Made by a program: the position numbers and the translations under genes. Positions 2,180 to 58,620 of a DNA stretch of 64,000 nt are shown in pieces; position 1 is the stretch's first letter; every line of letters begins with the position of its first letter. Source of the stretch: Eledone cirrhosa. Its lineage: Eukaryota. Under the pieces are notes generated by a model that was given only the letters and a program-made list of their open reading frames with translations, was not told the origin of the DNA and did not search any database. The DNA lies in NCBI GenBank assembly GCA_964016885.1, contig OZ024743.1, forward strand, positions 195,176,001-195,240,000, in the 5' to 3' direction.

Positions 2180-2224
2180 AATAATAATAATAATAATAAT
2201 AATAATGATAATAATAATAATAAT
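2180..2224. repeat. (AAT)n tract at the left boundary of the retrotransposon array
   Basis: Direct inspection; abuts the 3' end of Tx1 copy E1. Confidence 0.95.
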
Positions 2225-2469
2225 GTTTTCTTTATTAAACACAAGGGTTTACATTAAGTAGACATTAAGGACAGTACAGGACAATACAGGACGGTACAAA
2301 TGGGCATTTCTGCGTGTAAAAAAAAACAGAGGATGTAATAAAATAACAATGAAAAATTCCCCAATAGGGGGGAGACTTCCGAGGGACAGTTGTGGAGAGA
2401 GCCCATTAAAAGACCACAGTGACCCTGACCACCAGGGCAAGTGCCCTCTCCCAGTTTTCCACCTTTAAT

Positions 2470-5400
2470 TTACAGACACATACTCAGAATAGGCCCATTC
2501 ACTCAGGCCATACTTGCTTCTCTCACACATCTTTCAACAAAATGCTGGGAAGAGAGCACTTCCCTCTCCACCCTGATTTTCCTTTTCAAATGAAATTTGA
2601 AAAAGTTAATCAGGGCATCACCGAAGAGGTAAGTGCTCGTCTTCAGCCCTTTCAAACGTGTCCACCATACTATCTCTTTCGCCATGGCCACCAGACAGAT
2701 AAAAACTGCCTGCCCTTCTCGACTAAAGGAAGAGGGCGGGGCAATCCTCACGATGGACTCAGCTGATAGCTGGATCCGTCCTACACGTGACAGCAGGTGT
2801 TCGACATAAACCCACAAGTCAGCAATGCTCGGACACTGGACGAGTGCGTGCAGTACGGGTTCGTCGCCCTGCGCGCATCTAGGACACGCCTGGCTGACGG
2901 CACCTCCATGCCTGTAGAGATTATCCCGAACTGGCAAAGCTCCCCGGTAGCACTGCCAGGCCAGGGATTTCTGGAAGGTGTCCATAGGTCCCGGCCCGAA
3001 AGTCCTTCCGAAGAGATTGGCTAGTTGATTTTCGTCGACGCCTAGAGTTTCTCCAAGTACGTCGTCGCTCTTCCCCTCCACTAATCCTCTATAGAACGCC
3101 AAGGTGGAGTTTCCACCGATCACATTGCCCGATTGGTCGAGGGCTGTGAGTGCCTGAAGACATTCCACTCTCCAAGCGCTCCCTCTCGGTCTTGGCTTGA
3201 CCCAGGACTGCAGCTCCGTCAAGGAGACGAGCTGGGGAATGACGTGTCTAGCAAACGGCGACCACACTTGTTCACCGTCGAGGAAGAGGTGGAGATGTCG
3301 TAGCCTGAGCGCGTGTCTGCGCATCATCAGCCACAGCATGCCCAGCCCTCCAAGTAGCGGGTGTTGACAGCAGATGGACCGCCTGACCATCGGAGCGCGT
3401 CCCTTCCACAAAAAGCGAAAGCAAGCGCTCCAGCGCAGTCAGGCGGGGCTTAGGACAAGATACGACGGTCAGGCGGTAGTAGATGACGGACACGATGTAC
3501 GCATTAGCCACCTCCGCTCGACCTTTCAGGGATAGTTTCCTCTCCGTCCATTTCTGGGTGAGAGAAGCCACCCTGCTCGTCACCTCGTCCCAGTTTTTGT
3601 CCGTCTGGAGGTCCGGACCGAACCAGACGCCTAGCAATTTAACCGGTCAGTTCGTCCAGCGCCCGACGACGCTGTTGGACGGCATGGACCTGCCTCTCCA
3701 GGTGCCGAGCTGCAGGCCCACTGACATTTCCTGGTTGATCATTGCTCCTGTCACCGCTACGTATTCTCTTAGTGTAGTGCCGATCGCCTCGATGTGTTTG
3801 GCGTTCGACACCACTACGGTGACATCGTCCGCATATGCTGACACGGATCTTCCGCAACCTAGTTCGCACGGGACGCCCCTCAACGTCTCCAGTTTGTGCA
3901 GTAATGGCTCGAGAGTCAATACGTACAAGAGGGGCGAGAGGGGACATCCTTGGCGGACCGAGCGCATGATGTTGAACGGTTCCGAAAGGTGACCGTTCAC
4001 TCTCACCACAGAGCAGATGTCGCTGTACATGGCAGTGATCCAGCCTCTGAAGACGGGCCCAAAGCCAGCCGCGCTCAGGACTGCCGCTAGGTAACGATGG
4101 TCGACCCTATCGAAAGCTTTCGACTGATCTAAATTGATCAAGGTCCCACCCGTGTCAGGTTCCCTAGCTGCCCTCTCTACGATGTATCGCATGAGGTGGA
4201 GATTGTCATGGATGGATCTGTCGGGAATGGCGCATGTCTGCACCTCTACCACCAGACCACCAACGACAAGCGCCAACCTCTTTGCTAGCACCTTGGCTAA
4301 AATTCTGAACTCTGTGTTTAGCTGAGTTATGGGCCTAAAATGATCTATGTTATCCCCCTTGTTCGGATCCTTTCTCAGCAGCGCCACCGCTCCTCGGCTC
4401 ACATAGCTGGGAATTCTCCCGTTCTGTTGCCAGTTGCAGTAGACGTCCGCCAAAAGGCCTCCGAACAAGTTTGGCATTTGTACGTAAAGTTCATAGGGCA
4501 GACCATCCAAACCAGGCGATTTACCCCTTGTGCAGCCAGTCATTGCCTCCCGTACTTCAGCGGCTGTTATCGGCTTTTCGCAACACTCCGCCTCAGTGGC
4601 CGAGAGCCGCGGCAGTCCGTCGAGGTAGACACTAAAGTCTATCCCTCGATCCGGCCCGCCGCTGCCCCCGAACAACTGAGCGAAGTGTCGCTGAAAAGCT
4701 TCACACATTTGCCCGGGATCGAGTAGCATGCGCCCGTCGTGGTCCACCAAAGACCGGATCGTGACTTTGTTGCCACGACGCGCCTCCACCACTCGGGCCC
4801 ATTGAATGGCTTTCGTCCCCTCGTGTCTGAGAGCACGCACCCTAGCTCTGAAAACGCAGCCTTCGTGCTTTGCATTGAAGAATTGGTCAAGGGCCAATTT
4901 CGCCTCAAGTACGTCCGTCGCGATGCCTTTGCAAAGCGCCTCGTCTAATTTTCTGACTAATTCTCCCTCTGCTCTATTTTTCTCTATTGCTAAAGCCTTA
5001 CTAAACCTAATGGACTCTATTCTAATTGCTCTTTTCAGAGCAAACCACCACTTGTTGTTGACGATGGCCCCCGTCAACTCCCGCCCAACTAGTTCGCTAA
5101 TCCGGTCTCTGTAGGCCTTGCGCGCTGGTAAGGACGCGTTTAGCTTCCAGTAGCCAGGTCCTCGTCTATGAAGCCTATGTAAGTCAAGCACAAAGATCAC
5201 GAATGTGTGGTCCGTGTAGCTGACTATCTTGAATTGTGGACAGCCTATCCTAGACCTATCTATTTCCCTACAAAATACTCTATCTAGATATGATCTGGAT
5301 GACCCTATGCGATTTGTCCAAGTCCACATTGGTACATTCGGGAACTCCAATCGGTACCTGTCAGACAGTTCAAAACGCCTGAGCAGGTTGGTGAGGCTCT

Positions 5401-12900: not shown

Positions 12901-15416
12901 GAGCGTAGACTGCCACCAGTCTAAAGGCACCACGTTATTGTTAACGTCCAGGACCACCGACTTCCCGTCCCGGTCCCGGAAGATTGACCTTACCTCGAGA
13001 TCCAGGCCTTTCCTAAACAACACTGCATCCCCACTTCCCATTCCCGGCTGACTAACAGATGCTAAGATATGATAGTCGTCGAAAATGGGGGCTAGTGCGC
13101 AAGTGTCGGAAATCCTGGTCTCGCTGACGGCAATTACATCCATTTCTAGAGACCTGAGATCGTTGAGCAGGTGGCCCTGCTACCAGGACGATCCCAGGCC
13201 TCGAACATTTAAACTTCCTACTCTTAATACGGCCATGTTGGCAGGTTAAAAGAGAGAGAGGAGAGGTTTACTTACCTTCCGGGCTCTTGTGAAGGTCGGG
13301 TGGTTCAACCTCCATAGTTGGTGGGGTTTCTTTTGGGAACCCCTTTAAAAGTCTTGAAGTGGGTTTTACGTTCGGGATTCCCACGTCCCGAGGAAAGCTG
13401 TCTCGTATCTCTTTGTATAAATCGAGCGACATTCGCACCAGAAACAAATCTTCCGGCACGCGAAATGTGCTCGATTAAAAATCTCCTCTTCTTTTTGTAT
13501 ATTTTCACTTCGTGCTGCGAGGGCCATCAGTTCCTTGTTGGCCCTCCTGACGAGCACGAAGTTTTGTATGTTTTGTTGGTGTGATTTTATTTGTTTGTGA
13601 TGGCTTTGGTAGTGTTGTTTCGGTTGTATCTGTATTTGTTGTGAGTGCGGTGTCTGTGGTTTCAGATGTTTGTGCGTGTATTTGTTCTTGCGTCTGTTTA
13701 GGTTGTTTGCGTTGAGGGATTCTGGTGATGGTGATGGTGGTGTTGATGTTGGTGTTATTGGAGAGATGTTTGCGTGGGTGCATTTTTATTGTGGGTGATT
13801 TTGTGCTTTGTTGATTTTTTTTTCTTTTTCTGTTTCCTTTTTTGTATTTTGGGGGATTTTAGTTTTCCCTCATCTTCACTACTGGTAGATGAGGGGTCTG
13901 TGTCTGTAAGTGTGTCTGTGTGTATGTTTATGTTTTTATTGATGTGTGTATTTGGGGGGGGGGATTTGACAACTTTCCTCGTTTCCCCCCTGGGTGGTTA
14001 ATGTTGGCGGTGGTCTTTCTATTGGTGTGGTTGTTGGTGGTTTTGCCGGTGCTGGTGTTAGTTGTGGTCCTCGCCCCGGCGTCGGCAGCAGTCGGTCCTT
14101 TCGACCCCTTGCATCTTTCAGCAGTTGAGGGCAGAAGGCGCGCAAATGGGCTTTTTACCCACAAACAAAACAATGCGGTCTTTTGCCCTCAGTCATAATA
14201 TGAAACCGTCTCATTCTGAAGGCGGATGTGGTCCGGGATTGTCTTCACATTCTCGGGGCTGATCTGGAAAATGTATCTCCAGGTCAACACCAGACCAGTC
14301 CTCTCTGGCTGTTCTTGTCACTTCTATCGGGATGGTATCCGTCCCCTCCACAATCACACATCCCAGAAGCCACCACATGTCAAGTCCTGGTGGGATTCTG
14401 GGAATGCGGAGACGGGCCGTTCTTTTCCCATGTGGGAGGGGTACATTATGACCTTGCTGGTTATGCAAGGAGTAATAAAGTGTTTCATAGCAAGGGCTTC
14501 TGAGTTGAACATCACCGAAATGGTGCCGTACTGTCTGCCCCTCGCTATATATTCGGTGTCATCTCTGATGCACCTCAGCGCGACTTCGACATCTGCTTGT
14601 GGAATTAAATCTGCTCTTTTGGTTTTTGCTGAGATGCATCTATAATGCACCGATCTGCGCTCCACTGCCTCAATACCTTCTAACGGGACAGTAAAGCTGG
14701 CCGAGGTTTGCTCTTGCTTGATCAGCTTCCAGGCCTGGGCCAACTTTTCATCTTTGTTTGTGAGGTCCATGTTGAAGCATGGCCTCTTTTTTGCTGCTGC
14801 CGCAGCGAAAGTGTTCTTTTTTTCGTTAGGGGTGTTGTTGTTGTCGTTGTTCTTGTTGGTGTTGTTGTTACCACTGTCGCTGTTATCATTGTTTTCTTTG
14901 GTGCCGGCGTTGTTCTCGGTGCCGTTAGTATTGTTGCTGTTGGTGTTGTCGCCATTTGTTTTCATGTTAGTGGTGTAGATATTGTTGTTGCATTTGTCAT
15001 TTTTTCTGTTATCTGTATTTTTGTTGTCGCTGTTACTGTCATTTTTTTCAAAATTAGAGTTCTCAGTGTTGTTATCATTGCTGTCTTTGTTCACATTGTT
15101 TGTGGTGGTGTTTATTGTATCAATTTCTGTTAATTCGCCGTAGCGCTCCTCTCAACTTCCACGTCATTGTCGCACGACAGCAGACATGTTGCTGGAGGCG
15201 TGGCTCAGCCATGTTTAATTTTTTTTTCGATAATTTTTTTAAAATGTAAGAGTTTTAATATTTGGGCCAATAGGCCCAAATATTATTCTTTCCCCTTCAC
15301 AGGGCAAAGCCCAAGGGCTTGTATGCGTTACGCAACAACAAAAATTCAATAAATAAGTTTTGACAGGTAAATAAGTAAACTTACGAGAGCGAGAAAAAAG
15401 ACGTCAGTTCAGACTC
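9955..15416 (-). mobile_element. Tx1 family B, full-ended, degenerate, internal RT deletion (E2)
   Basis: ORF1 ~15212-13268 (Asn-rich N-terminus, ARGRQYGTISVMF). ORF2 13236-10207. About 370 bp of RT are missing at ~11718 relative to E8. (AAT)n on both sides. Confidence 0.85.
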
Positions 15417-21904: not shown

Positions 21905-23886
21905 ATGGCTAATTCACCACTGCACCAGGCAGCTGAAAGCCTTTCTCACAAATTAACACCTCACACCGACACCAACATTGTAAATGATTATACGTCTTCC
22001 AACACAAACAATTTAAGCACTAGCAATATTTTAAATTTGTCTCAGGCAGACATTCATTTCCCGCCATTACCAATGACTGCAGGTGTTAAAGCCGCCACCA
22101 CCACCACCACCACCACCACCGCGACAACCCCCACCACCACCACAACCGCGACAACAGAAACAAAAGGAAAAAATAAATCAACTCGTGATGTCGAAATATT
22201 TTCAACCAAAATGGACTCTTCCAAACCGAACTTCACTGTCGTCACCACCACCACAACTGAAACTAAAATTAATAATAACAAAAATAACGATAGCAACAAC
22301 AACAACAATGAAATTAAAAAAACCACCCTGAGTTTTGCCAGAGTAGCAAAACAGTTCGAAGCATTTACGGTAACTCAGGATGATTTAGAAAATGCCAAAC
22401 AAATGGTAAAGAAAGATAGGTACAGGGTCACCCCCCCCCCAAACCTAATAAAATGGAGCATCGGCGCCTATGCACCGTGTCGTATCGAACAATAAATGTA
22501 AAATCGCGCCGAGAGGAACGGGCATCCCTGTCCCAAATCCAAAAAGCTTTGGGACATGTGTGGGCAAGAAAAACCCACATCAGACGTGGGCAGAAGTATG
22601 GAACCGTGGACGTTTTCTTTGAAACACCGGAGGAGGCTAGAGAACACTCCATGGCCCCATTAAGAAGTGACGACTTCACACTCGTCCCAAGCTATTGTGG
22701 CCAGAGACTCTAAAGATCAGGGTGACCCACACTCCACCGGCCATCGAAATTCCCTGGCTAATAGCGGCCGTCCTCGTCGACATCGAAGCCAACACAAAGA
22801 TAATACCAATTGCAAAAGAAAAGCAGGAGAACTGGTCCGGATCTGGGATGGAGCTCCTGATCCAAGCGGACCAAAAAAGCATTGAGGAGATCCCAGAGGT
22901 AATAGACCTCACTGACGGCAGCCACCTCACCGTAATTGTCGAGGGCAGAAGGCCTAGGTGTGTCGTTTGTGGTGAAGGAACCCACCTAAGGGCTTTCTGC
23001 CCTCAGGCTAAAAGGTTGACGCCACCTCTCCTACCCACCCCAGTGACACAGCCATCAACACCACCAGTAGCAGAGATGGCAGCAACAACTGTAGCAGCAA
23101 CAACAGAAGCAACTATAACAGCAACAACCCCAGCAACAGTAGCAAAACCAACACCACCACCACCAGCAAAACCAACACCACCATCACCCAATGCTTCAGA
23201 ACTAGCACCAGCACCTACACCATCCACCACGCCACAACCAAAACTAACGCCTGTGGAGGATTTTCCACTCCCCGGCCTATCACAACTGGAGACAGATTGT
23301 GACGACGAGGAGTGGGAAACGGTATCAGGAAAATAAAAAAGAAACCAAAAAAGAAAAAATTCTCTTCCTTCCCCCAATACAGAGGGAAACAAATAAATAA
23401 ACAAACAAAAAAGTTAGGACAGATATGCCACCATCCACACCAGCATCACCAACCACATCAACCCAAACACCAACACAATCACCATCATTAACCCCAACAC
23501 CACCATCACCTACACCACAAAAGTCACCAAAATGCGAAACAGAAACAAACCCACAACAAACGCAAACAAAACAAAACAACCAAAACGATACACACTACAC
23601 ACCATTAAATTTGAACAACAAGCAATTATTACACTACATCCAACGCAACACCAGCATCACAGAAAAAGACTACACAACAACCCAAAAATTCACACCACCT
23701 CCACACATACAAATCACTCGCATCACACAGAAAACGTACATGACACTAAAACAAAAATTCCCCAAAGACATCGGAGACTTCCGACAAGCACTCTCCAGGA
23801 GGATTTATAAGGACATCCTTCCTGAGGAGGCCACAAGCAGTGAAAAGGATGGAAAAACCGTCCTTCCCCTACGAGAAGTAAGGTAA
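21905..23886 (+). pseudogene. E4 ORF1, frameshifted
   Basis: Pieces 21905-22495, 22453-22713, 22695-23336 and 23425-23886. Zinc knuckle CVVCGEGTHLRAFC. Confidence 0.85.
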
Positions 23887-23922
23887 GTGGTATTTCCCAT
23901 CTTTTCCACTCCTTTCAACATG
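23881..23922 (+). promoter_or_regulatory. Inter-ORF signal: AG|GTAAGT splice-donor-like motif, pyrimidine tract and CAAC-ATG
   Basis: The motif is present at the same position in 7 of 8 Tx1 copies from three families. Function is inferred. Confidence 0.55.
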
Positions 23923-27607: not shown

Positions 27608-30600
27608 AGTTGCATTTATCTTGCTTTATGTTCATACGAGTTATCACCAAGTCACAACCAGTGACCTTAAGAGACAACAAGGTCCGCCATGTTCAAGAAA
27701 GAACATACATACTCACACATGCATCTTTAGTGTTTAGACTTGTGATGTACTTATATTGACAGAATCTTCCTTAGTATATGGGCAGTTCCCATTAGTACTA
27801 TCTTTTGTATTTCTCCTATACGCGGGTTTCCTGGGATTTGCGATAAGTAATCGTTAGACCCCTTAGGTATCATTCCCAGAGCGCCTACAACCACTGGTAT
27901 TGTTTTAGTTCTCAATTTCCACATCTTTTCCAAATTCTATCTCCAGGTCCTTATACTTGCTCAATTTTTCAAATGTTTTTATAGATACATTCTTGTCTAT
28001 TGGAACGGACATATCAATTAGCAGGCATACCCTCTTTTTAAAGTCCTTCAATATTATATCAGGTCTATTTGCATCTATTTTTCGGTCTGTTTGGATGCTA
28101 AAATTCCACAAGATTGAGATGTGGTCTTTTTAAAGTATGGGAGGTGGTTGATGTTCCCACCAATTCTTTTGATGGGGCAGGTCAAAATGCTTACACGTTA
28201 TCCAATGTATGTATTGTGCAGCTCTGTCATGCCTGTTTAGGTATTCGGTTGGAGCTATAGGACTGCATATTGAAATTATATGGTCAATGGTCTCTGGTTG
28301 TTTTTTGCATACACGGCATAATGGGCTGCATCCATTTTTTATTATGTTGGCTTGGTAATTTTTTGTTGGCAGACACTGATCTTGTGCTGATATAATCAGT
28401 CCTTCAGTCTCCGATTTCAGTCCAGAGGATGCCAACCACTGATGGGTTAAAGTTTTGTCAACATCAGGATTGTTAGCTCGATCTGGGTATTTTCCATACA
28501 GAGGCTTTTCTTGCCATTTCTTAGCCAGTTTCTGTAGCAGTTCTTTCTTTGCAGTTACTTTTACCTGCTTTGCTTTTTCTGTGTTTTCTATTTCAGCAGT
28601 AAATGGGACTTCTGAAATTTGTAGTCCATTACTGTATCTTTGTGCATCTTTTGTAATGGAATATGATCTTTTGATGCTTTCGTGTTTCAAAACGAGTTTG
28701 ATCATCCAATCATGTGATTCCCTTAGATATGTAGATAATCCAATTGTTGCAGTTTTCAACGCAATGTCTAACTGGATTAACCCACGTCCTCCTTCTTTCC
28801 TAGGGAGATATATTCTATCTGTATCTGCCTTAGGGTGTTGCATTCTGTGCATGGTTAAGAATTTTCGAATTTTTGTATCGAGCCTACGGATCTCTGCGCT
28901 TGACCAGTTGATGACATTGCAACTGTAGGTTACTACTGGTATGGCAAGCGTGTTTATGGTATCGATCCTATTCCTTGCATTCAATTCCATTCTTAAGACT
29001 GCTCTTACTCTGGGGTAACATTCCTTCCTTATCCTTTCCCTCATTGTCGAGTGCTTGATTCCGTCTCCTTCACAAACACCTAGATATTTGTAAGTTTTAT
29101 CTTGATCAAGTTCTCTTATCACGATCCCCCGATCAAGATTAATGTCTGAACTCTTCAGCAGCTTTCCTCTGGTGAACGTTGCTTTGGCGCATTTATCTAG
29201 TCCAAACTCCATTTTAATGTCATCACTGAACTGCTCCACAGTGGATAATAGCCCTTGCAATTGTTCATCATTTTTTGAAAATAGTTTCATGTCATCCATG
29301 TAGAACAAGTGATTAATGGTTTTGTCATAGAGTTTATATCCCTGTTTTGTTTCATTGAGCATTTTACTTAATGGTATAAGTGCGATGCAGAATAAAAGCG
29401 GTGATAAAGAGTCACCCTGAAAAATTCCACAATTAATATTAACTTCTCCAGCTTCCAGTGATTTTGTTTCACTATTCAAAAGGAGTGTCGTTTTCCATGT
29501 CTTCATACTGAATGACAAAAACCTCCTGACAACGGGGGATACTTTGAAAATCTCTAAACATTTTTCAATCCAACTGTGTGGCAAACTATCAAATGCTTTT
29601 TTATAATCTATCCAAGCAATTGATAGATTTTTGTGTCTATTATTGACAATCTTCCAGTATCATTTTGTTAACCAAAAGCTGATCCTTACAGCCATATGAG
29701 CCTCGTTTACACCCTTTCTGCTCAATGGGAAATAGGTCATTTGTTATCAGGTGGTCATATGTGTATTCAGTTAGGACTGATGTTAACATTTTATACATTG
29801 TGGTCAAGCAAGTTATCGGTCTGTAATTTTTGGGATTGTTTGTCTCATCCTTCTTCGGAAGCAGGAATGTAATACCGTTAACTAGCCATGATGGTATCTT
29901 TTCTGGCTCCTTAGCTATTTCATAGTAAAGTTGGGCTAACAGCTCTTGAGACTCTGTGAAGGGATTTATCCAAAAATTTTGTATTTTGTCTTTTCCTGGG
30001 GATTTCCATTTGCTGGTTTTTCTTAGAGCCAAGCGCAACTGTTCAACTGTTATATTTTCCCATATTTGTTCCTCAAGGTGAGCTGTATCTTTCATTTGTC
30101 TGTCTATCCATGGGGCATGTATGTTATGAATTTTTTCTTCAGCCCAGATCTTTTCCCAGAATTTTTGCACTTCCTCCTTGGGTGGTATTGATTTAGCAGT
30201 TATTGTTGACTTACCAATTTTTCTGTAGAAGTTTCTTTGGTTGTTTTTGAACATATTATTGTCCTTATAGAATCTAGATCGTTTTTCAAAACGCCTTATA
30301 CGAGCAGCTTTGGCCGACACTTTTTGCTTGATTATTTCTATCAGCATGTCTATGTCACTTGTTGATTTTATACTGTACTTTCTTTTCAATTTTCTAAGTT
30401 TAGTTTGTTTAACATGTTCACCTACTTTATAGTTTTTTAAAATTTCTATGTCAGATCGGAGAAGGTTTATTTGGCGATTGATGTTCTCTTGCCAAGTAGA
30501 TTTCTTGTGGGAATTCCCTTGTTTTTTCATCTTCACTCCACATAAGTGAGTGGTGACTTTAGCCGATGCATAATAGAGATGATTTAAATCAATAATGTTT

Positions 30601-32530
30601 AGTTTGTTTGTGATGATAATGTTTTTGAAAATTATGTTAGTCTTGTGTATTATCTTTTGGTTCTGTTTGGAGTTCTGGATCTTAGGGAGGGTGTCTCGTT
30701 GCTCCATGTCAGATTCTTTCATTTTCATCCATTCGATCATAATTTCATCCTTCAAGTTGGCAAGTTCATTCTCATTCATTTCTTTATCATTTACGATCTC
30801 ATTATTTTCATTTGGATTTTCATCTTGAGCATGCACTCCCTCCACTTTTTCGATCCTTTCTTTAATTTGTTCTGTTGCCAGTGATTCCGCCCCAACCCTG
30901 GGATTCGAAGTGTTACAATTTACCTCGTTTTCACTGACACGCGTTTCATTTTCCCTTCGCTGACTTTGTGCTAATAGCTTGATCTGATCAATTTCTATAT
31001 CAGTTAGTAACTTTTTTTTTACAATATTTCTTCGTATATTGGCTAGTTTGTTACTGTCAATATAGCCTCTGTTTTCGGGATGTTTCTTTTTCCAGTTGAT
31101 ATATGTCTGTTCTGTATTCGATGTATTTGATGGGTAGTACATGGCAGTGTAGAAAGCCTCAAGGACTTCTTTATTATCTTCCCTTGACAATTTTTCTCTC
31201 TTTTTCTTTGGATTTCTTGGTGGTGAGCATGGAGGGCCAACAGTAGGAGTATTCCGGTTATGGGAGGTCTCCAGCTCCGAAGTGATGGGAAGGTTTGAAC
31301 CATTAGCTGATTTTTCGACCCCAGTCTGGTTCCTCTCTGAGGGACGCGGCCCTTTTTTACCTGGGTGACGGCCGATCCGGTATGAGATTTTATCATTAGA
31401 CATTTACTTTATTTTGTCGCGTTTTATCCTTATCTGCCAAGGGGTAATCATTTCGAGTTACCACTTCTAGAACGAGTGTCAACCAAGACTAGAGGGGTCG
31501 TTCTCCCCTAGAGACACGGCTATTCCCCGCCGGCCGCACTCCCGGTATTTCTTGGTCACGAGGTTTTCTTTTTTGTTGTTGTTTTTTTATTGTTACTATC
31601 ATGAGTGGTTCCTTAATGTGAGCATTGCGTGGCTTAAGAATGAAATTATTAATAATTGTCTCCACTCCAGGCACAAGGCCAGCAATTACCCAGTGCATTA
31701 CAATAATATAATATACTTTTTGCTGAAGTTGCCTGTTATTCTTGTTGGCTATGTCGGTGGTGGTGCCGGGGCTTTTTATATTGTTGGTGAGGAAGGGGTG
31801 AGCCAGCAGTCCCATAGTTGTTGATGTTGACGTTATACCTTTTGCTAGCCTCTCCCTTGTCTAGCGATACCGCCACCTTCCCCTTTCTCTCTCAAGTTAA
31901 AAGGGGAATAGTGGTGGTAGCAATGTAGGAGTGGTGGCGGCGGTGATGGGATAGTGGTAGCAATGATGGATGGAGTGGTGACGGCGGTGGTGTTGTCGTT
32001 ACTGTGTTTTGTGATATGTAGTATCTATGAGTTTGTGTTCGTATGTTTAATATATATTGTGTTGACATATTCCCGTCAAATTGGAATTAAACATTTTGTT
32101 AAAACTTGAGACAATAATAATAGTAATTATTATTATGATACTGGGATTGGTGGTGGTGGTGGTGAAATTGCCGTTATCTGGCTGTTATATTTAGTGTACA
32201 CAGCGGGGTGATGGGGTAGGTGGTGGATCAAGTTTCTGGTGTTGGTGAAATTGCTGTTATTTGACTGTTCTATATAGTGTAGACAGAAGGGGTTTTCTTC
32301 CATTTATAACCATTTTCTTTTTTGAATATAAAATATATAATACAAAATTGAATATTTGAGTGATATAACAATATATTATGGATCCGAAATTTTATGAGAT
32401 TTGATTCGGTGATTTATGCATCATTTGTACTAAGAATTGTCATTTCACAATTGATTTAGATATGTTAAAAATCAAGAACATACGGGAACGATTTCATGAA
32501 CTTCTACCACCACGTGCGTCTTCTTCCCTT
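27607..32530 (-). mobile_element. R4/Dong-clade RLE retrotransposon, full length (D2; second family)
   Basis: Single long ORF, ~140-bp 3' UTR ending in (TAA)n and a ~1.1-kb 5' region. Its terminus is homologous to that of D3. Confidence 0.88.
27751..31403 (-). pseudogene. D2 RT - CCHC - restriction-like endonuclease polyprotein, three lesions
   Basis: YRPITCLTTMYK, QKGC..GCKDQL, WIDYKKAFDS, GIFQGDSLSPLLF, HLFYMDD, CRVC...ETIDHIISIC, RHD, RPDI..LIDMSVP..KLSKYKDL. Frameshift ~29640, stop 28130, frameshift ~27930. Confidence 0.9.
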
Positions 32531-35672: not shown

Positions 35673-38600
35673 GGTGCTGCTGAAAAAGGGACCACTTCTT
35701 TTGCAGGTCTCGCCCGAAATATCGAGACAGTGTTAGTCACAGAGGAGCAGATGGCAGTTGCAAGGGCTATGGTGACAAGAAGCGCAAATAGAGTCTCCCT
35801 GAAACTTCCACCCGATTTTTTTCAAGGACCAGCAGCTACTGACGGTGCCTTACCGCACCGTAAGCAAAATCTCACATCGGGTGGAGAGAGCCACGTAGGC
35901 TCAAATCCAAAAGGCCTTGGGGTGCGTCTGGGCACGGAAAACCCACATCACCCGAGGCAGAAAGTACGCCACAATAGTCGTACATTTCTCCTCCCCCCAA
36001 GAAGCAAAGTCTCACTCTTTGGAAACCCTAAAGGGTGAGGAGATAGTCTTAGTGCCCTCCTACTGCGGGCAGAAAATTGTTAGGGTCAAATCGACCCAGA
36101 TCCCACCCGACGTGCTCATACCTTGGCTGACATCCTCGTGGACACACCCATGACCAGCGAAAGGGACTGTTCTACTGTCCCTTCACCACACGATCAAGGT
36201 AAGTGACCCTTTCTCACTTGCCCCGTTTCTCATCCAACATGGCCGTAATCAGAATAGGCTGTATAAATGCACGTGGCCTGGAGTCATCTTAGAAGCAGGG
36301 TCACATGCTCAACGACCTCAGGTCACTAAACATAGATGTGGTGGCCATCAGTGAAACCAGAATCTCCGAAGCACAAGCCTTCGCAACGATCTTCGGCGGC
36401 TACGATGTTTACGCATCTCCCAGCCGTCCAGGATCGTAAGGAGGGGTTGCCGTCCTTTTTCGGAGAGGCTTGGATCTCGCGATACGGGCCATATTCCTAG
36501 AACCAGAAGGTAAGTCGGTGGTGCTGGACGTGACCGGCAGCGAAGGCAATGCTTTCAGGCTAGTAGCCGTCTACGCCCCAACAGGGGCAGGACGGCCAGA
36601 ATTCTTCAGACGTCTAGAGCCCTTTCTTGGAACGTCCCGCTCTTTAGTGTTAGTGGGCGACTGGAACGGTATCTTGGATGCACGCTGGGATCGTGTGGGG
36701 CTAGTGGATAGGGGAGGAGGGTGCAAGAGCCTCACCAACCTGCTCAGACGTTTTGAACTGTCTGACAGGTATCGGCTGGATCACCCGAATGTGCCAATGT
36801 GGACATAGACAAACCGTATCGGGTCATCCATATCGTATCTCGATAGGGTATTCTGCAGAGAACTAGATAAAGCTAGTATAAGTTGTCCACAATTTAAAAT
36901 AGTCGACTACACAGACCACAAATTTGTGATCGGTGAGATCGACATAGACAGACTTCATAGACAAGGGCCTGGTTACTGGATGCTGAACGCATCTTTCCCT
37001 GCGCGCAAAGCCTACAGAGACCGGATTAGCACATTAGTTAAGCGGGCGTTGACGGGAGCTGTCAACAACAGGTGGTGGTTCGCCCTGAAAAGGCCAATTA
37101 AAGTAGAGTCGATTAGGCTTAGCAAAGAGTAGTGAGAGAGGAAAATAGAGTAGAGAGAGAGCTAGTTAGAAAGCTACAATAGGCGTTTGGGACAGGCATC
37201 GCAACCGACGTGCTTGCGGCGAGATTGGCACTCGACCAACTCTTCAGCGCAAAACATGAAGGCTGCGTTGTCAGAGCTAGAGCGCGTGCTCTGAAACACG
37301 AGGGGACCAAAGCCGTCCAATGGGCCCGGTGGCAGAGGCGCGACATGGCAACAAAGCCACAATTCGGCCTTTGTCTGACCAAAACGAGTGCGTGATGCTC
37401 GAACCCGAGCGGATGTGTGAAGCTTTTCAGCAGCACTTTACTGAACTGTTCGGGAGCGGCGGTGGCCCGGATCGGGGCATAAACTTTAGTGCATACCTCG
37501 ACGGAGTGCCTCGGCTCTCGACGACCGCAGCACAGTGTTGCGAAAAGCCAATAACAGCCGGTGAAATACGGGAAGCGATGGCTAGCTGAACAAGGGGTAA
37601 ATCGCCAGGTTTGGATGGTCTACCCTACGAGCTTTATGCATTTATGCCAGACTTGTGCGGTGACCTCTTGGCAGACGTCTACTGCAACTGGCAGCAGAAC
37701 GTGAGCATTTCCAGTTTTGTGAGCCGGGGAGCAGTGGCGCTGCTGAGAAAAGACCCGAACAAGGGGAATGTTAACTATAATATCAGGCCCATAACCCTGC
37801 TAAACGCAGAGTTCAAAATTTTCGCCAAGGTGTTAGCAACGAGGTTGGCGCTTGTCGTCAAGGGTCAGGTGGAAGAGGCGCAGACATACGCCATTCCGGA
37901 CAGATCCATACACGACAACCTCCACCTCATTCGATACATAATAGAGAGGGTGGTTAAGGAACCTGGCACGGGTGGGGCCTTGATCAACTTGGATCAATCC
38001 AAAGCATTCGATATGGTAGCCCATCGGTACCTGGCGGCGGGCCTCGAGGCAGCCGGTTTCGGGCCCTTTTCAAGGGTTGGATCGCAGCAATGTACAGCGA
38101 CATCTACTCAGTTGTGAAAGTGAGCGGTCACCTGTCGAAGCCGCTCGGCATCATGCGCTCAGTCCGCCAGGGTTGTCCCCTCTCTTTCCTCTTGTACGTA
38201 TTGGCTCTCGATCCGTTACTGTACAAACTGGAGGCGATGAGGGGCGTCCCATGCGAACTAGGATGCGAGAAATCCGAGTCGGCTTACGCTGACGACGTCA
38301 CCGTGGTGGTGTCGAGCACCAGATACGTCCAGATGCTCGGCACCACTCTTAAGAAATACGAAGCGGTGACAGGAGCAAAGATAAACCACGAAAAGTCGGT
38401 GGGCTTGCAGCTCGGCACCTGGAGAGTCAAGTCCATGCCATCCGACAGCGTCGTGGGGCGTTGGAGGGACGGATCGGTTAAATTGCTTGGGGTCTGGTTC
38501 GGACCAGACCTCCAGATGGAGAAAAACTGAAACGAGGTGACGAGCAGGGTGGGCTCCCTCACCCAGAAATGGGCCGAGAGGAAGCTGTCCCTGAAAGGCC

Positions 38601-39956: not shown

Positions 39957-39974
39957 ATTATTATTATTATTATT

Positions 39975-42900
39975 GAATGCCATGGTTGACGGAGGCTCGG
40001 GTCTGTAAGGTATAGTAATTTTTAACCGCTATAACAATTGTAAATTGTTTAAAAATTTAACTAAATTGTAGACAAAAACACCTACCTCCTCGTGAGAGGG
40101 GCCTTTCTGCCCGTTATTTGGCCCTTCGGGGTTAAATAACCGCTTATTGGGGTTTTGTGCCCAATATTTATTTTAAACCAAAAAAACATGGCTACAGATA
40201 AGAATTTTCACAAGTCACTCCCACGCATTCCGTCTTCTTCCTCAATCGTCACTACACCAGAGAGAAGATTGTCTCCCCCCTCCCTTCTCTAAATGTGCCT
40301 CTCTCCCTCCCTTCTCTTTCGCAAGCGACGCCAGTAAAGAAAAAGAAAAATATAGTTTCTGATAGTTTCCAAGAGCACGTGCAAAACGTGGAACATTTCT
40401 CCACGACGACGACAACGACGAAATATGTGTGCGGTAAATACGGAAAGCCATTTCATTCGTCTGACGTCATGAATAATAGCAGTAGCAGCCGTAATAACAG
40501 CAGCTGCAGCAACAGTGACAAGGAAAACAACAGTAGCAGCCGCAACAGCACCAGCATCAGCATAAACAACAACAGCATTAGCAGCAACAGCAACGACAAC
40601 AGCAGCAGCAGCAGCAACAACAACAACAACCACAGCAACAGCGGCCGCGGCAGTCGTAGTTCCAGCAGCAACAACACAAGTGACAGCAGCTCTGACGACA
40701 ACAACAACAACAACAACAACAAAGAAAAACCAATCTCGTTTGCAGGTATCGCAAAGAACCTGGAAGCCATCCTTATAACAAATGAGGAATTACAGGAAGC
40801 AAAGAAGATGGTGACGAAAAGCGTTCACCGAACAATCTGCAAGGCAGCCGCAAAATGTTTCGAAACCCAACAGCACTGTACGGTCACGTACCGTACAGTA
40901 AACACAAAATCCCGGAGGGTTGAAAGAGCCACAGAGGCTCAAATGCAAAAGGCCTTAGAGTCTGTGTGGCAGCGGAAAACGCATATCACCCGAGGCAAGA
41001 AATATGCCACTGTGGACGTGCTTTTTGTCACACCCCAGGAGGCAAAGGCTCAATCCTTAGTGACCCTAAGGAGCGAGGAAATGGTGCTGGTGCCCTCCTA
41101 CTGCGGACAAAAAATTGTGAGGGTCAAACTGACCCCCCCCCCCCGGGATGGCCCCTTGGCTGGCCGAGTCTGTCCTCGTCGGAATCGAGGACAAAACAAC
41201 TGTACTGCAAGTACAGAAAAAAGTACGAGAAGATTGGGTCGGCACCTCCATTGAGATGTTAATCCAAACCAACCAGGAGTGCATCGAAGCTATCCCGGAT
41301 GTGACAGACTTCGATAACGGCACTCATTTGCGCATAAGTGTTGAGGGCAAACGCCCGAAATGCTTTCGCTGTGGATCGAAGACTCACATCAGGGACTTCT
41401 GCAATGAGAAGACCCTGAGAAAGGAGACCCGCCCCCTCCTTCCGAAACCGGCTCCACTGCTACCAGCAACAGGACAGGCGGCAACCAGGAAGGTTAGGTC
41501 CGTGGCACCCATACCCACGCCACGGAAATCAATAACAGCAGCAGCAGTAGAAGTATTAACAACAACAACAGCAATACCAACTGCAGCTGCAACAGAGACT
41601 CCACTGCAAGCCCACCGCAAACAACAACACCTTCAACACCACCACCACAAGCACCAGCATCGAAAACACAACAACAAAACACACACACCCTGCAACAACG
41701 ACAAGAAAATAGCAGAACCACAACGCATCCCCAGAAAAAGAAATACACAGCAATAAATACACACAACAAGAAACTAATGGCTTACATAATTAAACACGCA
41801 GACATTTCACAGAACGACTACATAATACCAGCACCATTCAGAACACCAACGAACATAAGACTGGTAAGAATAGCACAGAAACAATACACAAACATTAAAA
41901 CGAAATTCCCCAACGTAGTTGGTGATTTCAGAGACCTAGGAGGGACACTCAACCGGAGAATATATTCGGATATACTCACAGAAGAGCCGACGACCAGCCG
42001 AAGGGACGATTCAACGGTCCCTTCACAAGACGATCAAGTGAAAAGGGATGGACAAACCATCCTTCCTCAACGAGAAGTAAGGTAAGTGGTCTTTCCCATC
42101 TTTTCCACTCTTTTTAACATGACCTCACTCAGAATAGGCAGCATAAATGTGCGTGGCTTGGGGTCGTCATGGAAGCAGGGCCACCTGCTCAACGACCTCA
42201 GGTCACTAAACATAGATGTAGTAGCCATCAGCGAGACCAGAATCTCCGAAGCACGGGCCTTCGCACCGATCTTCGGCGGCTACGATGTGTACGCATCTCC
42301 CAGCCGTCCTGGATCGGAGGGAAGAGTTGGTGTGCTTTTTCAGAGAGGTTTGGATCTCGCCATACGGGCCATCTTCCTGGACCCAGAAGGTAAGTTGGTG
42401 GTGCTGGATGTGACCAGCGAAAACGGGCAAGCGTTCAGGCTAGTGGCCGTCTATGCCCCGACAGGAGCAGGGCGGCCTGATTTCTTCCGGCGCCTGGAGA
42501 CCTTTCTTGGAACGTCCCGCTGTTTTTGTGTTAGTGGGCGACTGGAACGGGATCTTAGATGCACGCTGGGACTGTGTGGGATTAGCGGATAGGGGAGGAG
42601 TGTGTAAGAGCCTCACCAACCTGCTCAGGCATTTTGAACTGTCTGACAAGGACCGTTTGGATTTCCCGAATGTGCCAATGAGGACTTGAACAAATCGCAT
42701 AGGGTTATCCAGATCATATCTAGATATAGTATTTTGTAGGGAAATAGATAAGTCTAGCATAGACTGTCCACAATTTAAGATAGTCAGCTACACGTACCAC
42801 AAATTCGTGATCTGTGTTCTTGACTTAGATAGGCTTCATAGACGAGGACCCGGCTACTGGAAGCTAAACCCGTCTTCACCAGCGCGCAAGGACTACAGAG

Positions 42901-45722
42901 ACCGGATTAGCGAACTAGTTAAGCGGGCGTTGATGGGGGCCATCGTCAACCACAGGTGGTGGTTTGCTCTGAAAAGAGCGATTAGAATAGAGTCCATTAG
43001 GTTTAGTAAGGCTTTAGCAATAAAGAAAAATAGAGCAGAGGGAGAACTAGTTAGAAAATTAGACGAGGCGCTTAGCAAAGGCCTGGCGACCGACGTACTT
43101 GCGGCGAAATTGGCACTTGACCAATTCTTCAATGCAAAGCACGAAGGCTGCGTTGTCAGAGCTAGGGTGCGTGCTCTCAGACACGAGGGGACGAAAGCCG
43201 TTCAATGAGCCCGAGTGGCGGAGGCGAGACGTGGCAACAAAGCCACGATTCGGCCTTTGGTGGAATTCGACGGGCGCATGCTACTCGATCCCGGCCAAAT
43301 GTGTGAATCTTTCCAGTGACACTTCGCCCAGCTGTTCGGGGGCAGCGGCGGGCCGGATCGAGGGATGGACTTTAGTGTCTACCTCGACGGACTGCTGCAG
43401 CTCTGGGCCACTGATGCTGAGTGTTGCGAAAAGCCGATAACAGCATAAGGGTAAATCGCCTGGTTTGGATGGTCTGCCCTATGAACTTTACGTACAAATG
43501 CCAAACTTGTTCGGAGGCCACTTGGCGGACGTCTACTGAAACTGGCAACAGAACGGGAGAATTCCCAGCTCTGTGAGCCGAGGAGCGGTGGCACTGCTGA
43601 GAAAGGATCCGAACAAGGGGGATAACATAGATAATTTCAGGCCCAAGATTTTGGCCAAGGTGCTAGCAAAGAGGTTGGCGCTTGTCTTTGGTGGTCTGGT
43701 GGGAGTGGCGCAGTCATGCGCCATTCCCGACAGATCCATCCACAACAACCTCCACCTCATGCGATGCATCGTAGAGAGGGTAGCTAGGGTATCTGGCACG
43801 GGTTGGTCCTTGATCAATTTAGATCAGTCGAAAGCTTTCGATAGGATCGATCATCGTTACCTAGCGGCAGTCCTGAAGGCGGCTGGCTTTGCGCCCGTCT
43901 TCAGAGGCTGGGTCGCTGCCATGCACAGTGACATCTGCTCTGTGGTGAGAGTGAATAGTCACCTTTCAGAACCGTTCAACATCATGCACTCGGTCCGCCA
44001 AGGATGTCCCCTCTCGTCCCTCTTGTAAGTATTGACACTCGAGCCATTACTGCACAAACAGGACGCGTTGAGGAGCGTCCCGCGCGAACTAGGATGCGGA
44101 AGATCCGTGTCAGCATATGCGGACGATGTCACCGTAGTGGTGTCGAACGCCAAACACATCGAGGCGATCGGCACTACACCAAGAGAATACGAAGCGATGA
44201 CAGGAGCAATGATCAACCAGGAAAGTCAGTGGGCCTGCAGCGCGGCACCTGGAGAGGCAAGTCCATGATGTCCAACAGCGTCGTCGGGTGCTGGACGGAC
44301 GGACCCGTTACATTGCTAGGTGTCTGGTTCGGTCCGGACCTCCAGACGGAAAAAACTGGGACGAAGTGACGAACAGGGTGGCTTCTCTCACCCAGAAATG
44401 GGCCGAGAGGAAGCTATCCCTGAAAGGTCGAGCGGAGGTGGCTAACGCGTACATCGCGTACACCTGCTACCACCTGAATGTCGTACCTTGTCCTAAGCCC
44501 CGCCTGACTGCGCTGGAGCGTTTACTCTTTCGCTTTTTGTGGAAGGGACGCGCTCCGATGGTCAGGAAGTCCATCTGTTGTCAACACCCGCTACGTGGAG
44601 GGCTGGGCATGCCGTGACAGATGATGCGCAGACACGCGCTCAGGCTACGACATCTCCACCTCTTCCTCGACGGTGATTAGGTGTGGTCGCTAGACGCAGC
44701 TTTCTCCAGCTCGTTTCCTTGACGGAGCTGCAGTCCTGGATCAAGCAAAGACCGAGAGGGAGCGCTTGGAGACTGGAATGTCTTCAGGCGCTCACAGCGC
44801 TCGACCAATCGGGCAATGTGATCGGTGGAAACTCCACCTCGGCGTTCTATAGAGGATTAGTGGAGGGGAAGTGCGACGACGTACTTGGGGAAAATCTAGG
44901 CCTCGACGAAAATCAACTAGCCAATCTCTTCGGAAGAACTTTCGATCCAGGGCCTATCGACAACTTCCAGAAATCCCTGGCCTGGCTATGCTACTGAGGA
45001 GCCTTGCTAGTTCGGGATAAACTCTACAGTCATGGAGGTGCCGTCAGCCGAGCATGTCCGAGGTGCGCACAGGGAGACGAAACCGTCCTGCATGCACTCG
45101 TCCAGTGTCCTAGAATTGCTGACCTGTGGGTTTATGTCGAACACTTGCTGTCGCGTGTAGGACGGATCCGGCTATCAGCTGAGTCCATGGTGAGGATTGC
45201 CCCCGCCCTCTTCCTTTAGCCGGGAAGGGCAGGAAGTTTTTATCTGTCTGGTGGCCATGGCGAAAGAGATAGTATGATGGACACGTTTGAAAGGGCTGAA
45301 TACGAGTACTTACCTCTTCGGTGATACCCTGATTAACTTTTTCAAATTTCATTTGAAAAGGAAAATCAGGGTAGAGAGGGAAGTGCTCTCTTCCCAGCAT
45401 TTTGTTGAAATATGGGTGAGAGAAGTAAGTATGGCCCGAGTGAATGGGCCTACTCTTAGTATGTGTCTGTAAATTAAAGGTGGAAAACTGGGAGAGGGAA
45501 CATGCCCTGGTGGTCAGGGTCACTGTGGCCTTTTAATGGGCTTTCTCCACAAATGTCCCTCCGAAGTCTCCCCCCTATTGGGGAATTTTTCATTGTTATT
45601 TTTTATTGCATCCTCTGTTTTTGTTTTTTACACGCAGAAATGCCCATTTGTTATGCCCCGTTTTGTCCTGTACTGTACTTAATGTCTACTTTATGTAAAC
45701 CCTTGTGGTTAATAAAGAAAAT
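39975..45722 (+). mobile_element. Chimeric Tx1: C-like 5' UTR/ORF1 joined to family A ORF2 and 3' UTR (E7)
   Basis: ORF1 40188-42085 (CFRCGSKTHIRDFC) resembles E6 rather than family A. From 42039 onward it is near-identical to E1, E4 and E5. ORF2 42119-45472 is disrupted. Confidence 0.85.
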
Positions 45723-45753
45723 ATTATTATTTTTAATTATTATTATTATTATT

Positions 45754-48700
45754 GTTTTTTGAGTCTCAGTCATTGATGTTGGTGAACTGGAAAGTTTGTT
45801 GAAATGAATATGAAGCCACTACCTGCAGCCTCAGATATTCAGGACGTATCGGAGTGTTCTTGCTGTTCCCAGCAAGCATGCCTTTTGAAGTGTTCCAAAA
45901 AGCGGGGTGGGACTAATTTTCTTTAACCATCCCTCGAAACTCTTTGAGATAGTACCTAGTGCGCCTATGACAATCGGGACCACTTTGACCTCATGGCAGT
46001 TCCAAATCCTTTTTACCTCCCACTTTAAGTCCTAGTATCGGTTAATTTTCTCCCTCTACTTCTCTTGCACTCTTATTTCAAATGCGCAGGCTACATCCAC
46101 AATCAGACACGATCTTTTTCCCTTGTCCAAAACCACCAGGTCAGGTCTATCGTGTTCCAGTTTCTTGTCCGTCTGTATCCTAAAATCCAACAGCATCTTC
46201 AGCTGATCGTTTTCCATCACCGACTCTGGCTTATGCTCATACCACTTCTCAGAATATGGTAAATTGTTTACTTTGCATAGGTGCCAGTGGATCACCCTGC
46301 CCATCTCATCATTTTTCCAGCCTTTATATTGAGTCTGGGCTAGGTGTTTACATTCAGATACAATGTGAGCCACAGTCTCCTCTCTTTCTCCACAGATCCT
46401 GCACAGTAGGCTAGCCTCCTCCTTGTAAATATGGTGTTTCAGCCACTTCGTTTTGAGGGCCTGCTCTTGCGCAGCCATTAGCATTCCTTCTGTAGCCTTT
46501 TTAAGGTCTCCTCTTTTCAACCAGTTCCTTGTCTGTGGATCTCTGAATTCAGTTTTCTCAAAGAAGGTACTATGAAGGGATTTTTCATGAAGGTTGCTCT
46601 TTCTCCTTGTTGTTATTTCCTCCTTGGACATCCCCTGGTCTATTGTCCTCTCCTTCAGTACAATTCTGAGCATTGGCTCCCTACTATCAGTCACATATTT
46701 GTGTAGGTTGTTTTTTCTCCATCTGAACACAGTCCTCTATGCTGATAAGACCTCTTCCACCTTCAGATCTCCTTAAGTAGAGTCTATCGACATCACTCCT
46801 CTTGTGGAACATGTTGTAGATAGTCAATAGTTTCCTAGTGTTCCTATCCATTTCTTTTTTTTCAGCAACATTCCATCTCAGAATTCCCACACTGTACCTA
46901 ATAAAAGACACAGCTCGGGAATTTACTGCACTTATGGCATTCCTACTGTTCAGATGTGATTTTAATACGCTCCTTATTCTCCGAATGTATTCAGATCTTA
47001 TCAATTCCTTCATTTTTTTGTTCTTGGTGTCATCAGCCTTAGGAAAACCCAAATACTTGCAGTGTCAATTTCCTTTATCATCTCACCTGTTGGTACCTGG
47101 ATTTCGTTGCTTCTGCTCAATTTCTTCTTTGTTTGTTGTTTGCTCTCGCTTTTATGCCAAGTAATTTCCTCACCGCATTTGCTGTTGCTTTGAGGATATT
47201 GTTGCACTGGTGAAGGCTCCTCGCCTCAAGGTATGGGATGACTTTGTTTACCTTAGTTGTTGTTTCTTTTAACTTTTTCCTGTCTACAAATCTTAGGTTC
47301 ATAGGTTTCCCACTATCATTGTTCATTTCATCTACCACTAAGTTTAGGATATTAACCAAATCTTGTCCTAGCCCGTCAGCATTCATTTCCTCAATGGTCG
47401 TATCTTTGTTCCAAGTATTATTTATTTCAGCATTCAGATCACTGTCTGCTTCGGATGCTTCCTCCGTTCTCTCAACCTCTTCACCTTCATTTCCCACTGG
47501 CTCGTTTGCCTAGCATACTCCACTCTCCATTTCAAACCTAATCTCTCTGCTCAGTTCCTCCAGTTCCAGCTCGCTTATCCACCCATTAGTTCTTATTACC
47601 CGAGCCTACCCGGCCAATTTTTGTTCATCTAATTTAAATAGACCAATCTCGTTCCAAATGTTATGCATCCGTTTCCTTTAGCCTTTTTACTTGGGGTTAC
47701 TCTTCAGGTAACATTCCATAACAGCTCTATTCATTTCTTTCGTCCAGTTGATTCTGGTCCATTTCCTTCTTCCTCTTCCTCCAACACCAGCAGTATTTGG
47801 ATGACAGCCAGGTCCCTGCTCCTGGGCCAGGGAGCACCTGCTGGGTGACAGTCTGTCACTTGACATTCCAGTCTCCACTTCACCGTTATTCGAACTGTTT
47901 AGGTTCGACATTTAAGCACTCAATTCGAGGATTGGTGAATGTATGGTTACATAACTACCGGTGATTTCATCACCCCCGGTGATTTTAGCGTGGCACCGTC
48001 ACGCTGTAGACGAACATAAATAAACCAACAAACAAATACATAAAAACCTAAAAAGTAAACAAAAACAACAAAAACAAACACAAGTTTCATTGTAATGTTT
48101 GAATGTCTGACTTAGCTTTTCTTATCTTTTTCTCTCTCCCTTTTTTGTTTGTTTTTCTCCTTTGCGTTTTTCGTTTTACAAGGCCAGTAACATCGGTTCC
48201 TAGTGTTGCTGTTGCTGCTGCTGCTAAGGGAAGTAGGGGTTGTTGTGTTCAAAACTTTTGAAACCCGTGTCCGTTGTTGCGTTTGCCTCTGTCTGTGTTC
48301 TGTTCTATAATTTTTCGACTATAATTTTATCTATTATTTTTTTCCCTTTCATCCCTACGTGGGCGACACCACAAAGCACCTGCAACACACCAGGACAATT
48401 GCTGGCCCCGTGCCAAAAGCAGAAGCACTTATTATTATTATTTTATAGTTTAGATTTGACATTGTTTAAACTAAACATTTTGAGAGAGTTTAGAGATATA
48501 ACAACATAATTATTTTGGTGTTGTTGTTATTGTTGTTAGCTGTTTGTCCGAGTCACTAACCCAGTCTATTTATATCTTTTGATACCTTCAACGCTTCTTT
48601 ACATGTGTAACGGCATCACCACCCCTCTCTTAAGTAGTGAGGGAATAGTAGCGGTAGCGATGATGCAGTGTTGACGGTGGCGATGGGGCAGCAGTACTAT

Positions 48701-57676: not shown

Positions 57677-58363
57677 AAATAATACTATGTTATAAGCGTT
57701 AATATTGCTACGGAAATGAGAATGGTTTCGAAGCTTGTTGAACAATTTTCAGAAAGTATATTACTTTTCCTCTTCAGTTTTGTTTTCCTTCTTTTGTTTT
57801 CTATGGATTGCTGTAAATAGACGGACAATATTTGTTTATTGGGGTATTTGACTTAAAGAAATGCATATATGATAGTAATTTTCGATGAAAACTGAGAAAA
57901 AAGGACGTTCCATTTCAAATATTGCAGTGCTTCTTTCTTGTTTGGAAATCTCATTATAAATCAGCATTTTGTCACTGTTCTTTATAAAGTATAGTGTTCC
58001 GAATAATATTATGCACCGTTGATTTGCCAATAGCGTGTTCTTGACCTATTTTAGCTTTAGTGGCAACACTGTCATGCTTGATAATTATTGACAATTCTTC
58101 TTTGAATGCTATAATTTTTTCTTGTTCTGAAAATGTTCGCCACTTCTACTAGCGTGACTTATTCGATTGGAATTCATGACGATAAATTATGGGTTTGTAA
58201 ATAAAATATCCTCCCGGTTATCATGGCTTCGAATAACATGGCCCTCAAATTAATATGGTTTATGAGATGGCAACGACTCCTGAAAGGCACACAATGATTA
58301 CAGTTTTGCACTGCACATGAATGTAGCAAATATGTATGTATATATATGTATATATATATATAT

Positions 58364-58563
58364 NNNNNNNNNNNNNNNNNNNNNNNNNNNNNNNNNNNNN
58401 NNNNNNNNNNNNNNNNNNNNNNNNNNNNNNNNNNNNNNNNNNNNNNNNNNNNNNNNNNNNNNNNNNNNNNNNNNNNNNNNNNNNNNNNNNNNNNNNNNNN
58501 NNNNNNNNNNNNNNNNNNNNNNNNNNNNNNNNNNNNNNNNNNNNNNNNNNNNNNNNNNNNNNN
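58364..58563. other. Assembly gap (200 N) within (TA)n
   Basis: Run of N; a (TA)n/(TATG)n tract continues to ~58900. Confidence 1.
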
Positions 58564-58620
58564 CAGTCAAGTTTGCAAATATATATACATATATGTATAT
58601 ATATATATATATATACACAC

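Follow-up and report, generated by a model that had tools for sequence, protein, structure and literature searches.

The renewal of LINE families by exchange of the 5′ module is known and is usually credited to reverse-transcriptase switching. The mouse L1MdTf and L1MdGf families were described as recombinant L1 families (PMC3600994), for which DNA recombination, an RNA/DNA heteroduplex and strand switching were given as models, the string "splic" being absent from the main text of that paper. For SVA_F1 (MAST2) and the chimpanzee STK40-SVA, an upstream exon spliced into the retrotransposon was described as the founder of an amplifying subfamily (PMC6139936). Among L1-mRNA chimeras, 6 of 17 were reported to end exactly at splice donors, some of the donor-ending ones having no acceptor on the L1 side, and cis-splicing, trans-splicing and template switching were proposed for them (10.1101/2025.02.02.635956). 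Spliced L1 RNAs that had been retrotransposed (SpIREs) were described as dead ends (PMC5860796), and a non-LTR reverse transcriptase was found to be able to jump between separate templates (PMC8857657). No paper on splice-made chimeras between LINE families was found in a literature search from which Repbase, supplements and most subscription papers were left out.

The window analysed here is the whole 64,000-nucleotide stretch from the 3.0 Gb genome of Eledone cirrhosa, and it was found to contain eight related LINE copies. Copy E7 proved to belong, in decayed form, to a large hybrid LINE family, called R in this text, and is not the product of a local event. The features of E7 are given below in window positions.

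39957-39974, + strand: (ATT)n tail of copy E6, which the 5′ end of E7 adjoins directly in a head-to-tail array
39975-45753, + strand: E7, a decayed full-length copy of recombinant family R, from the 5′ end to the (ATT)n tail
39975-42038, + strand: C2-derived module, 5′UTR and ORF1 up to the position of the parent's donor
42037-42038, + strand: seam AG, common to both parents (2-nt microhomology), at which the exon of the C2 donor also ends
42039-42085, + strand: A-derived duplicate ORF1 tail with one additional G, TAA stop at 42083-42085
42082-42087, + strand: A-type GTAAGT donor-like motif retained in R, as read in the sequence
42088-42121, + strand: pyrimidine-rich spacer and ORF2 ATG (42119-42121), as read in the sequence
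42119-45472, + strand: A-derived ORF2 (endonuclease, reverse transcriptase, zinc-binding), broken in E7, domains by Pfam on an intact R copy

The C-type ORF1 end of E7 was found to extend up to 42038, followed by the A-type tail from 42039, and the ORF1 frame (ATG at 40188) reads ...TTSRRDDSTVPSQDDQ-VKRDGQTILPQREVR* across the seam. The frames opened by the ORF1 and ORF2 start codons of E7 run into stops after 34 and 157 aa, respectively. Two further copies in the window carry the sites needed for the comparison.

23838-23887, + strand: E4 (family A), CAG ahead of the tail adopted by R, and A's own donor
36198-36222, + strand: E6 (family C1), GTAAGT donor (36199) within a predicted hairpin of 9 bp, laid out as in the C2 parent

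In E4 the CAG at 23838-23840 precedes a tail that matches the post-seam sequence of E7. The first-pass annotation had read E7 as a junction of C-type and A-type sequence at the splice donor position, with a duplicated ORF1 tail that is preceded by CAG in family A, and the window was found to read as claimed on each of these points.

The seam 16-mer had 2,471 exact matches in the genome (control 0), so the junction is not single-copy, which would have counted against the first-pass reading; the equivalent 19-mer of family A had 2,151. An intact relative of E7 was found to encode an ORF1 of 697 aa and an ORF2 of 1139 aa. Young R copies have both ORFs intact, are about 99% alike and stand in head-to-tail arrays, and the family may still be active today. 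Five of them were found head to tail at one locus (G000:C1:55422001-55460000, L061-L064), with the full 1139-aa ORF2 in 5/5 and the full ORF1 in 4/5. The seam of a young R copy, near its position 2290, was bridged by contigs from three public sequencing runs, each of a different study (X5 1709-4078, X6 987-2398, X7 2217-3231). An intact R copy contained PF03372, PF00078 and PF13966, that is, an ORF2 with an APE-type endonuclease, a reverse transcriptase and a zinc-binding region at the C terminus, with a separate ORF1 ahead of it, as in the L1 clade. The nearest solved structure to the R ORF2 was human L1 ORF2p (E 1.5e-52, versus 1.8e-21 for R2), and the best named homologue was that of Argonauta hians (74% identity). 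None of the 116 ORF2 homologues was named Tx1; a Tx1-like preference for a repeat target, (ATT)n, was found, and the Tx1 label of the first-pass annotation fits the L1-Tx1 families described for Octopus vulgaris (PMC13282606).

In family R, the 5′UTR and ORF1 come from subfamily C2, and the ORF1 tail, the spacer and ORF2 from family A, so that different parents flank one shared seam in many copies. The proposal of a C-like 5′ parent stood as far as the type is concerned and not as regards E6, which belongs to the sister family C1; the true parent is C2. The expected unrecombined parent with GT at the seam position was found in C2, in which the ORF1 end of E7 is followed by GTAAGT. The C-type donor had 686 genome matches, 30 loci of which were sampled, and the C2 pattern (ORF1 end of E7, GTAAGT, C-type ORF2) was present in 4/30. 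A direct search for C2 gave 113 matches, and among the 100 listed, 82 were of C2 type and 18 were altered R copies, as counted by eye. About 90 C2 copies carry the ORF1 end of E7 with GTAAGT, as against at least 2,471 copies of R.

Full-length C2 was found to match R across the entire 5′ module, and the E7 module was 90-92% identical to one full-length C2 copy (L073). Between the majority bases of old R and C2, differences were found at 5/400 and 10/647 ORF1 sites, followed by 156/1,043 sites in the spacer and ORF2, a region in which old R differed from old A at 3/1,045 sites. In the ORF2 tree (86 of 96 rows, 10 having been removed for low cover), R was intermixed with old A and separate from C1 and C2. 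The parental ages are similar, with a median of 4.2% for C2 and 3.3% for old A from their own group majorities. Most R-specific alleles were present in 2/50 C2-type left arms, which points to a late C2 sublineage as the 5′ donor; 7 of its 14 changes are silent.

Compared with the described systems, R resembles mouse L1MdTf and L1MdGf in being a new active family with the 5′ part of one family and the 3′ part of another, and it differs from what is described for them by its staggered seam, its duplicated ORF1 tail and the position of the seam on a donor (PMC3600994). SVA_F1 and STK40-SVA, as described, join a non-autonomous element to host exons (PMC6139936), whereas R joins two autonomous LINEs, and splicing is proposed for it. 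The reported L1-mRNA chimeras carry host-gene exons in one or two insertions (10.1101/2025.02.02.635956), whereas in R an ORF1 module founded thousands of copies. SpIREs are described as intra-element products and dead ends (PMC5860796); R is inter-element and successful. Insertion at simple repeats is shared with Kibi and Koshi, the microsatellite-targeting Tx1 elements (PMC4494074), but in R the (ATT)n target is the elements' own tail, by which head-to-tail arrays are built.

The 6-kb sense strand of a reference C2 copy contained two AG|GTAAGT donors, and the seam lies on one of them. The left edge of the R seam thus falls on a canonical donor of the parent, as expected of a junction born by splicing. 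Across five family representatives, 7/8 positions of the ORF1-end donor were invariant, as against 2/37 and 2/24 positions in its flanks, and the motif was found 34-53 nt upstream of the ORF2 start in 9/9 copies compared, in two codon phases. An invariant donor with variable flanks and two codon phases suggests that the motif is under sequence-specific recognition. A strong acceptor-like site was also found in the 3′UTR.

45610-45637, + strand: strong acceptor-like site in the 3′UTR of E7, by a simple pyrimidine score

By the same score this site was first among the 189 YAG sites of A and second among the 209 of R. It is possibly the normal partner of the ORF1-end donor, and removal of ORF2 would fit as the ordinary job of that donor. 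A mini-intron of 52 nt fusing ORF1 to ORF2 was rejected, for no retrocopy of it was found at the A/R donors and the phases vary among families.

Other donor-like motifs were seen in these elements. A second one, at 40005-40010 in the 5′UTR of E7 and also in the B1/C1b and B2 heads, is located some 30 nt inside the 5′ end, in three head types unrelated to each other (GTAAGG, GTAAGT, GTGAGT). In R and C2, splicing from this second donor to an AG 14 nt inside ORF2 would, by eye, put an ATG that lies 5′ of the donor into the ORF2 frame. Family D (L209, minus strand, near 8248; L029) has its own ORF1 and an A-like ORF2 (91%), and its 48-nt spacer directly ahead of the ORF2 ATG reads GT, pyrimidines, AG.

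The preferred reading, to which a probability of about 0.5 is given, is that the left edge of the R seam was set once by the spliceosome on the C2 ORF1-end donor. Read-through RNA of an array with C2 followed by A would have been spliced from this donor to a cryptic CAG of A. By another route, the reverse transcriptase of A may have jumped to a C2 RNA that had been cleaved at the donor; the template jumping reported for a non-LTR reverse transcriptase allows such a mixed route, in which this step is an assumption. The product, with a whole ORF1 and ORF2, would then have been retrotransposed, gained one G and outgrown C2. R goes back to one shared origin, with an exact seam, both parents in the genome, later intact young copies and same-strand arrays. 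It represents one founding event and not a recurring swap route. The multi-copy seam, the GT in the parent and the common same-strand arrays make a splice-defined origin plausible, so that the splicing proposed in the first-pass annotation holds as a plausible account of this one family and not as a general means of module exchange. It is put forward somewhat more tentatively, at a little under even chances, that the host spliceosome made a new autonomous LINE family within a microsatellite-targeted array through the elements' own ORF1-expression donor, the product having outgrown its 5′ parent more than 25-fold and being still intact. If so, LINE evolution would gain a further route, the splicing together of two autonomous families into a hybrid, and R, among the largest families sampled here, would be indirect evidence of real use of the donor. 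Even without splicing, the question can be put to the test with R, for which both parents are known, the seam is exact to the base and young copies are intact.

As a rough estimate, a random switch would match the donor in about 1-3% of cases if 50-150 nt of the C2 side were viable, and on the same premise the coincidence weighs roughly 30- to 100-fold for a donor-defined end. Such a coincidence is rare in the background, since 0/139 other junctions were found to begin at a strong donor. The weight of the donor coincidence is offset by the commonness of microhomology events, which leaves splicing and switching near balance; the figures for the origin readings are judgements and were not computed.

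The same-orientation tandem arrays on which read-through would depend were found to be common, as the first-pass annotation had supposed, with 27/32 tail junctions leading into a full 5′ end. Elements were inserted at the tails of older elements in the same orientation, 5′ ends were preceded by (ATT)n runs in the contexts shown, and C2 was followed by the 5′ end of A at 3/29 loci. Only two A copies were found to bear the additional G of R, and one of them has a full-length C2 of the same orientation 6.2 kb upstream, a coincidence estimated here at about 1-2%. This locus (G000:C2:46713000-46726000, L299-L300) reads A-R-C2-A, the final A having the additional G. It was rejected as the founder, its C2 arm having 0/13 R alleles and the A copy just scattered R-like alleles; the G may have come by conversion by an R copy. 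No source locus with all R alleles was found among the 50 C2-type left arms. Other repeats at 28130-31403 (− strand) and 45760-47123 share the (ATT)n arrays of the window, including a long RT-encoding element that, judging by its motif, may be R4/Dong-like. The window also has 200 N bases near 58360-58570, apparently one assembly gap, far from the seam.

On the acceptor side, the caveat of the first-pass annotation that a strong pyrimidine tract is lacking was borne out. The seam CAG of A, 80 nt ahead of the ORF2 start, had 9/20 pyrimidines by the simple score and three further, competing AGs within 16 nt. More pyrimidines were found at 29/64 YAG sites in the 5′ part of A, and a better CAG stands 42 nt upstream of the seam CAG.

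Next to splicing stands a switch of reverse transcriptase from A RNA to C2 RNA, or a skip along C2-A read-through RNA, at the shared AG, which is a serious though somewhat less favoured explanation. The match to the donor would then be accidental, the choice of sites having been restricted by selection for a complete ORF1 with an intact A tail and spacer, and hairpin bases at both breakpoints having helped. In a junction survey of 1.8 Mb of DNA, 176 unique junctions were obtained, 139 of them well fitted, the rows including about 10-15 reference-switch artefacts. Microhomology of 1-5 nt was dominant, 2 nt being found in 28/139 junctions as at the R seam, and strand switching is a standard model for L1 mosaics as described in PMC3600994. 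Apart from the R seam, GT..AG-compatible junctions were 1/139, with a weak donor; at later loci GT..AG was found in 0/31 kept rows (of 42), and in 0/9 inter-element junctions, two of which fit poorly. An independent C2/A-type chimera (L342), in which C2, about 495 nt into ORF2, is joined to an A-type spacer, brings the same parental types together near the ORF2 start of A; the join shows no splice signal and an imperfect microhomology of about 6 nt. In the second hybrid family, C1b, the 5′UTR and the beginning of ORF1 are of B1 type and the remainder is of C1 type; the two parts meet in an AAC-rich tract that contains no donor. Among 21 C1 copies in which a head was matched, about 9 have the C1b head (L203, L191, L205 and others). 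Moreover, an R-type copy (C4:241175755) has a deletion that begins at the seam place though R has no GT there, as seen in a 35-nt view. Within the window, the head of copy E2 near 14850-15220 (− strand) is of C1b type.

Predicted RNA structure bears on the same explanation. Structure prediction places the 5′ base of a hairpin at each of the two R breakpoints, with the C2 donor paired and buried inside a hairpin, and the E6 stretch at 36160-36240 gave a predicted fold with z -3.6. Hairpin bases were weakly enriched at left breakpoints (p 0.045, 77/176 junctions used), so structure alone explains little. Against a switch stand this weak enrichment, the estimated 1-3% coincidence with the best-conserved donor, and the longer AGTGA homology of the parents, which was left unused: intermediates using it had 0 genome matches, by which a two-step origin through AGTGA was also rejected. 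At one locus (L125) the donor and spacer can pair with sequence past the ORF2 stop, at about -42 kcal/mol in A and R (unshuffled); in a folding model, such spacer-3′UTR pairing may account for part of the motif conservation.

A DNA-level origin, by which an A cDNA primed at the (ATT)n tail of C2 joined upstream C2 DNA and deleted the ORF2 of C2, or repair at the AG removed the 6 kb between a C2 and an A in tandem, is considered improbable. It agrees with the same-strand insertion of elements at the tails of older ones, and in R the younger 3′ end recruited the older 5′ end, which is the direction described for L1 (PMC3600994). It requires the same donor coincidence, however, and no source locus was found for it among the C2-type left arms. 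Of the R-specific changes in the C2 arm, which also occur in living copies of the C2 sublineage, half are silent; this fits a 5′ donor that was active and not decayed.

Splicing as a recurring route for 5′UTR/ORF1 swaps between families, the wider claim of the first-pass annotation, is likewise doubtful. In its favour are the donor conserved in all families examined, the arrays that permit read-through and the R seam itself, but this seam is the single event known, and neither C1b nor the single-copy chimeras are anchored at a donor. The predicted recurrence of breakpoints at the donor was not observed, for none of the five donors searched (old A/R, C1, young R, B, C2) yielded a second donor-anchored chimera. 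Non-parental sequence right after the donor was found in 9 (old A/R), 6 (C1), 1 (young R) and 7 (B) matches, all of which turned out to be local slips, a mutated R or matches outside the elements, and L152, L153, L158, L292 and L294 were rejected as independent events on being non-element matches or mutated R. The C2 donor had no third partner among the 100 matches listed of 113, and same-family pairs, in which the same donor and CAG are on offer, gave no donor-anchored chimera. Contigs from runs of unrecorded kind, compared with a young copy, had no joint at the donor among the matches listed, which speaks neither for nor against splicing. The search covered an estimated 5,000 or so copies, with a filter that passes about 3/4 of random continuations. 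Its expected background was only about 0.2-0.4 matches, so that it has low power and, though it gave no excess, is compatible with rare splicing. Spliced RNAs without ORF2 would also seldom be copied, owing to cis preference. Lastly, an assembly artefact or a single-copy accident has a negligible probability in view of the 2,471 exact seam matches, the intact young copies and the seam-bridging contigs of three independent studies, which exclude for the family the misassembly considered in the first-pass annotation.

The extra base noted in the first-pass annotation was found as one G in a run of G 7-9 nt past the seam (E7 42045-42047), and the idea that it keeps ORF1 in frame with the A end was given up. 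In two real copies without this G, the ORF1 stop stands one codon ahead of the donor; ORF1 still terminates beside the donor, and the G is therefore unnecessary for the stop. Only five genome matches were without the G, and two of these have young-R marks and so are probably later losses. Two A-headed copies (L253, L261; 2 of 14 rows) were found to contain young-R alleles in ORF2, by which in-register recombination between A and R is seen to happen as well.
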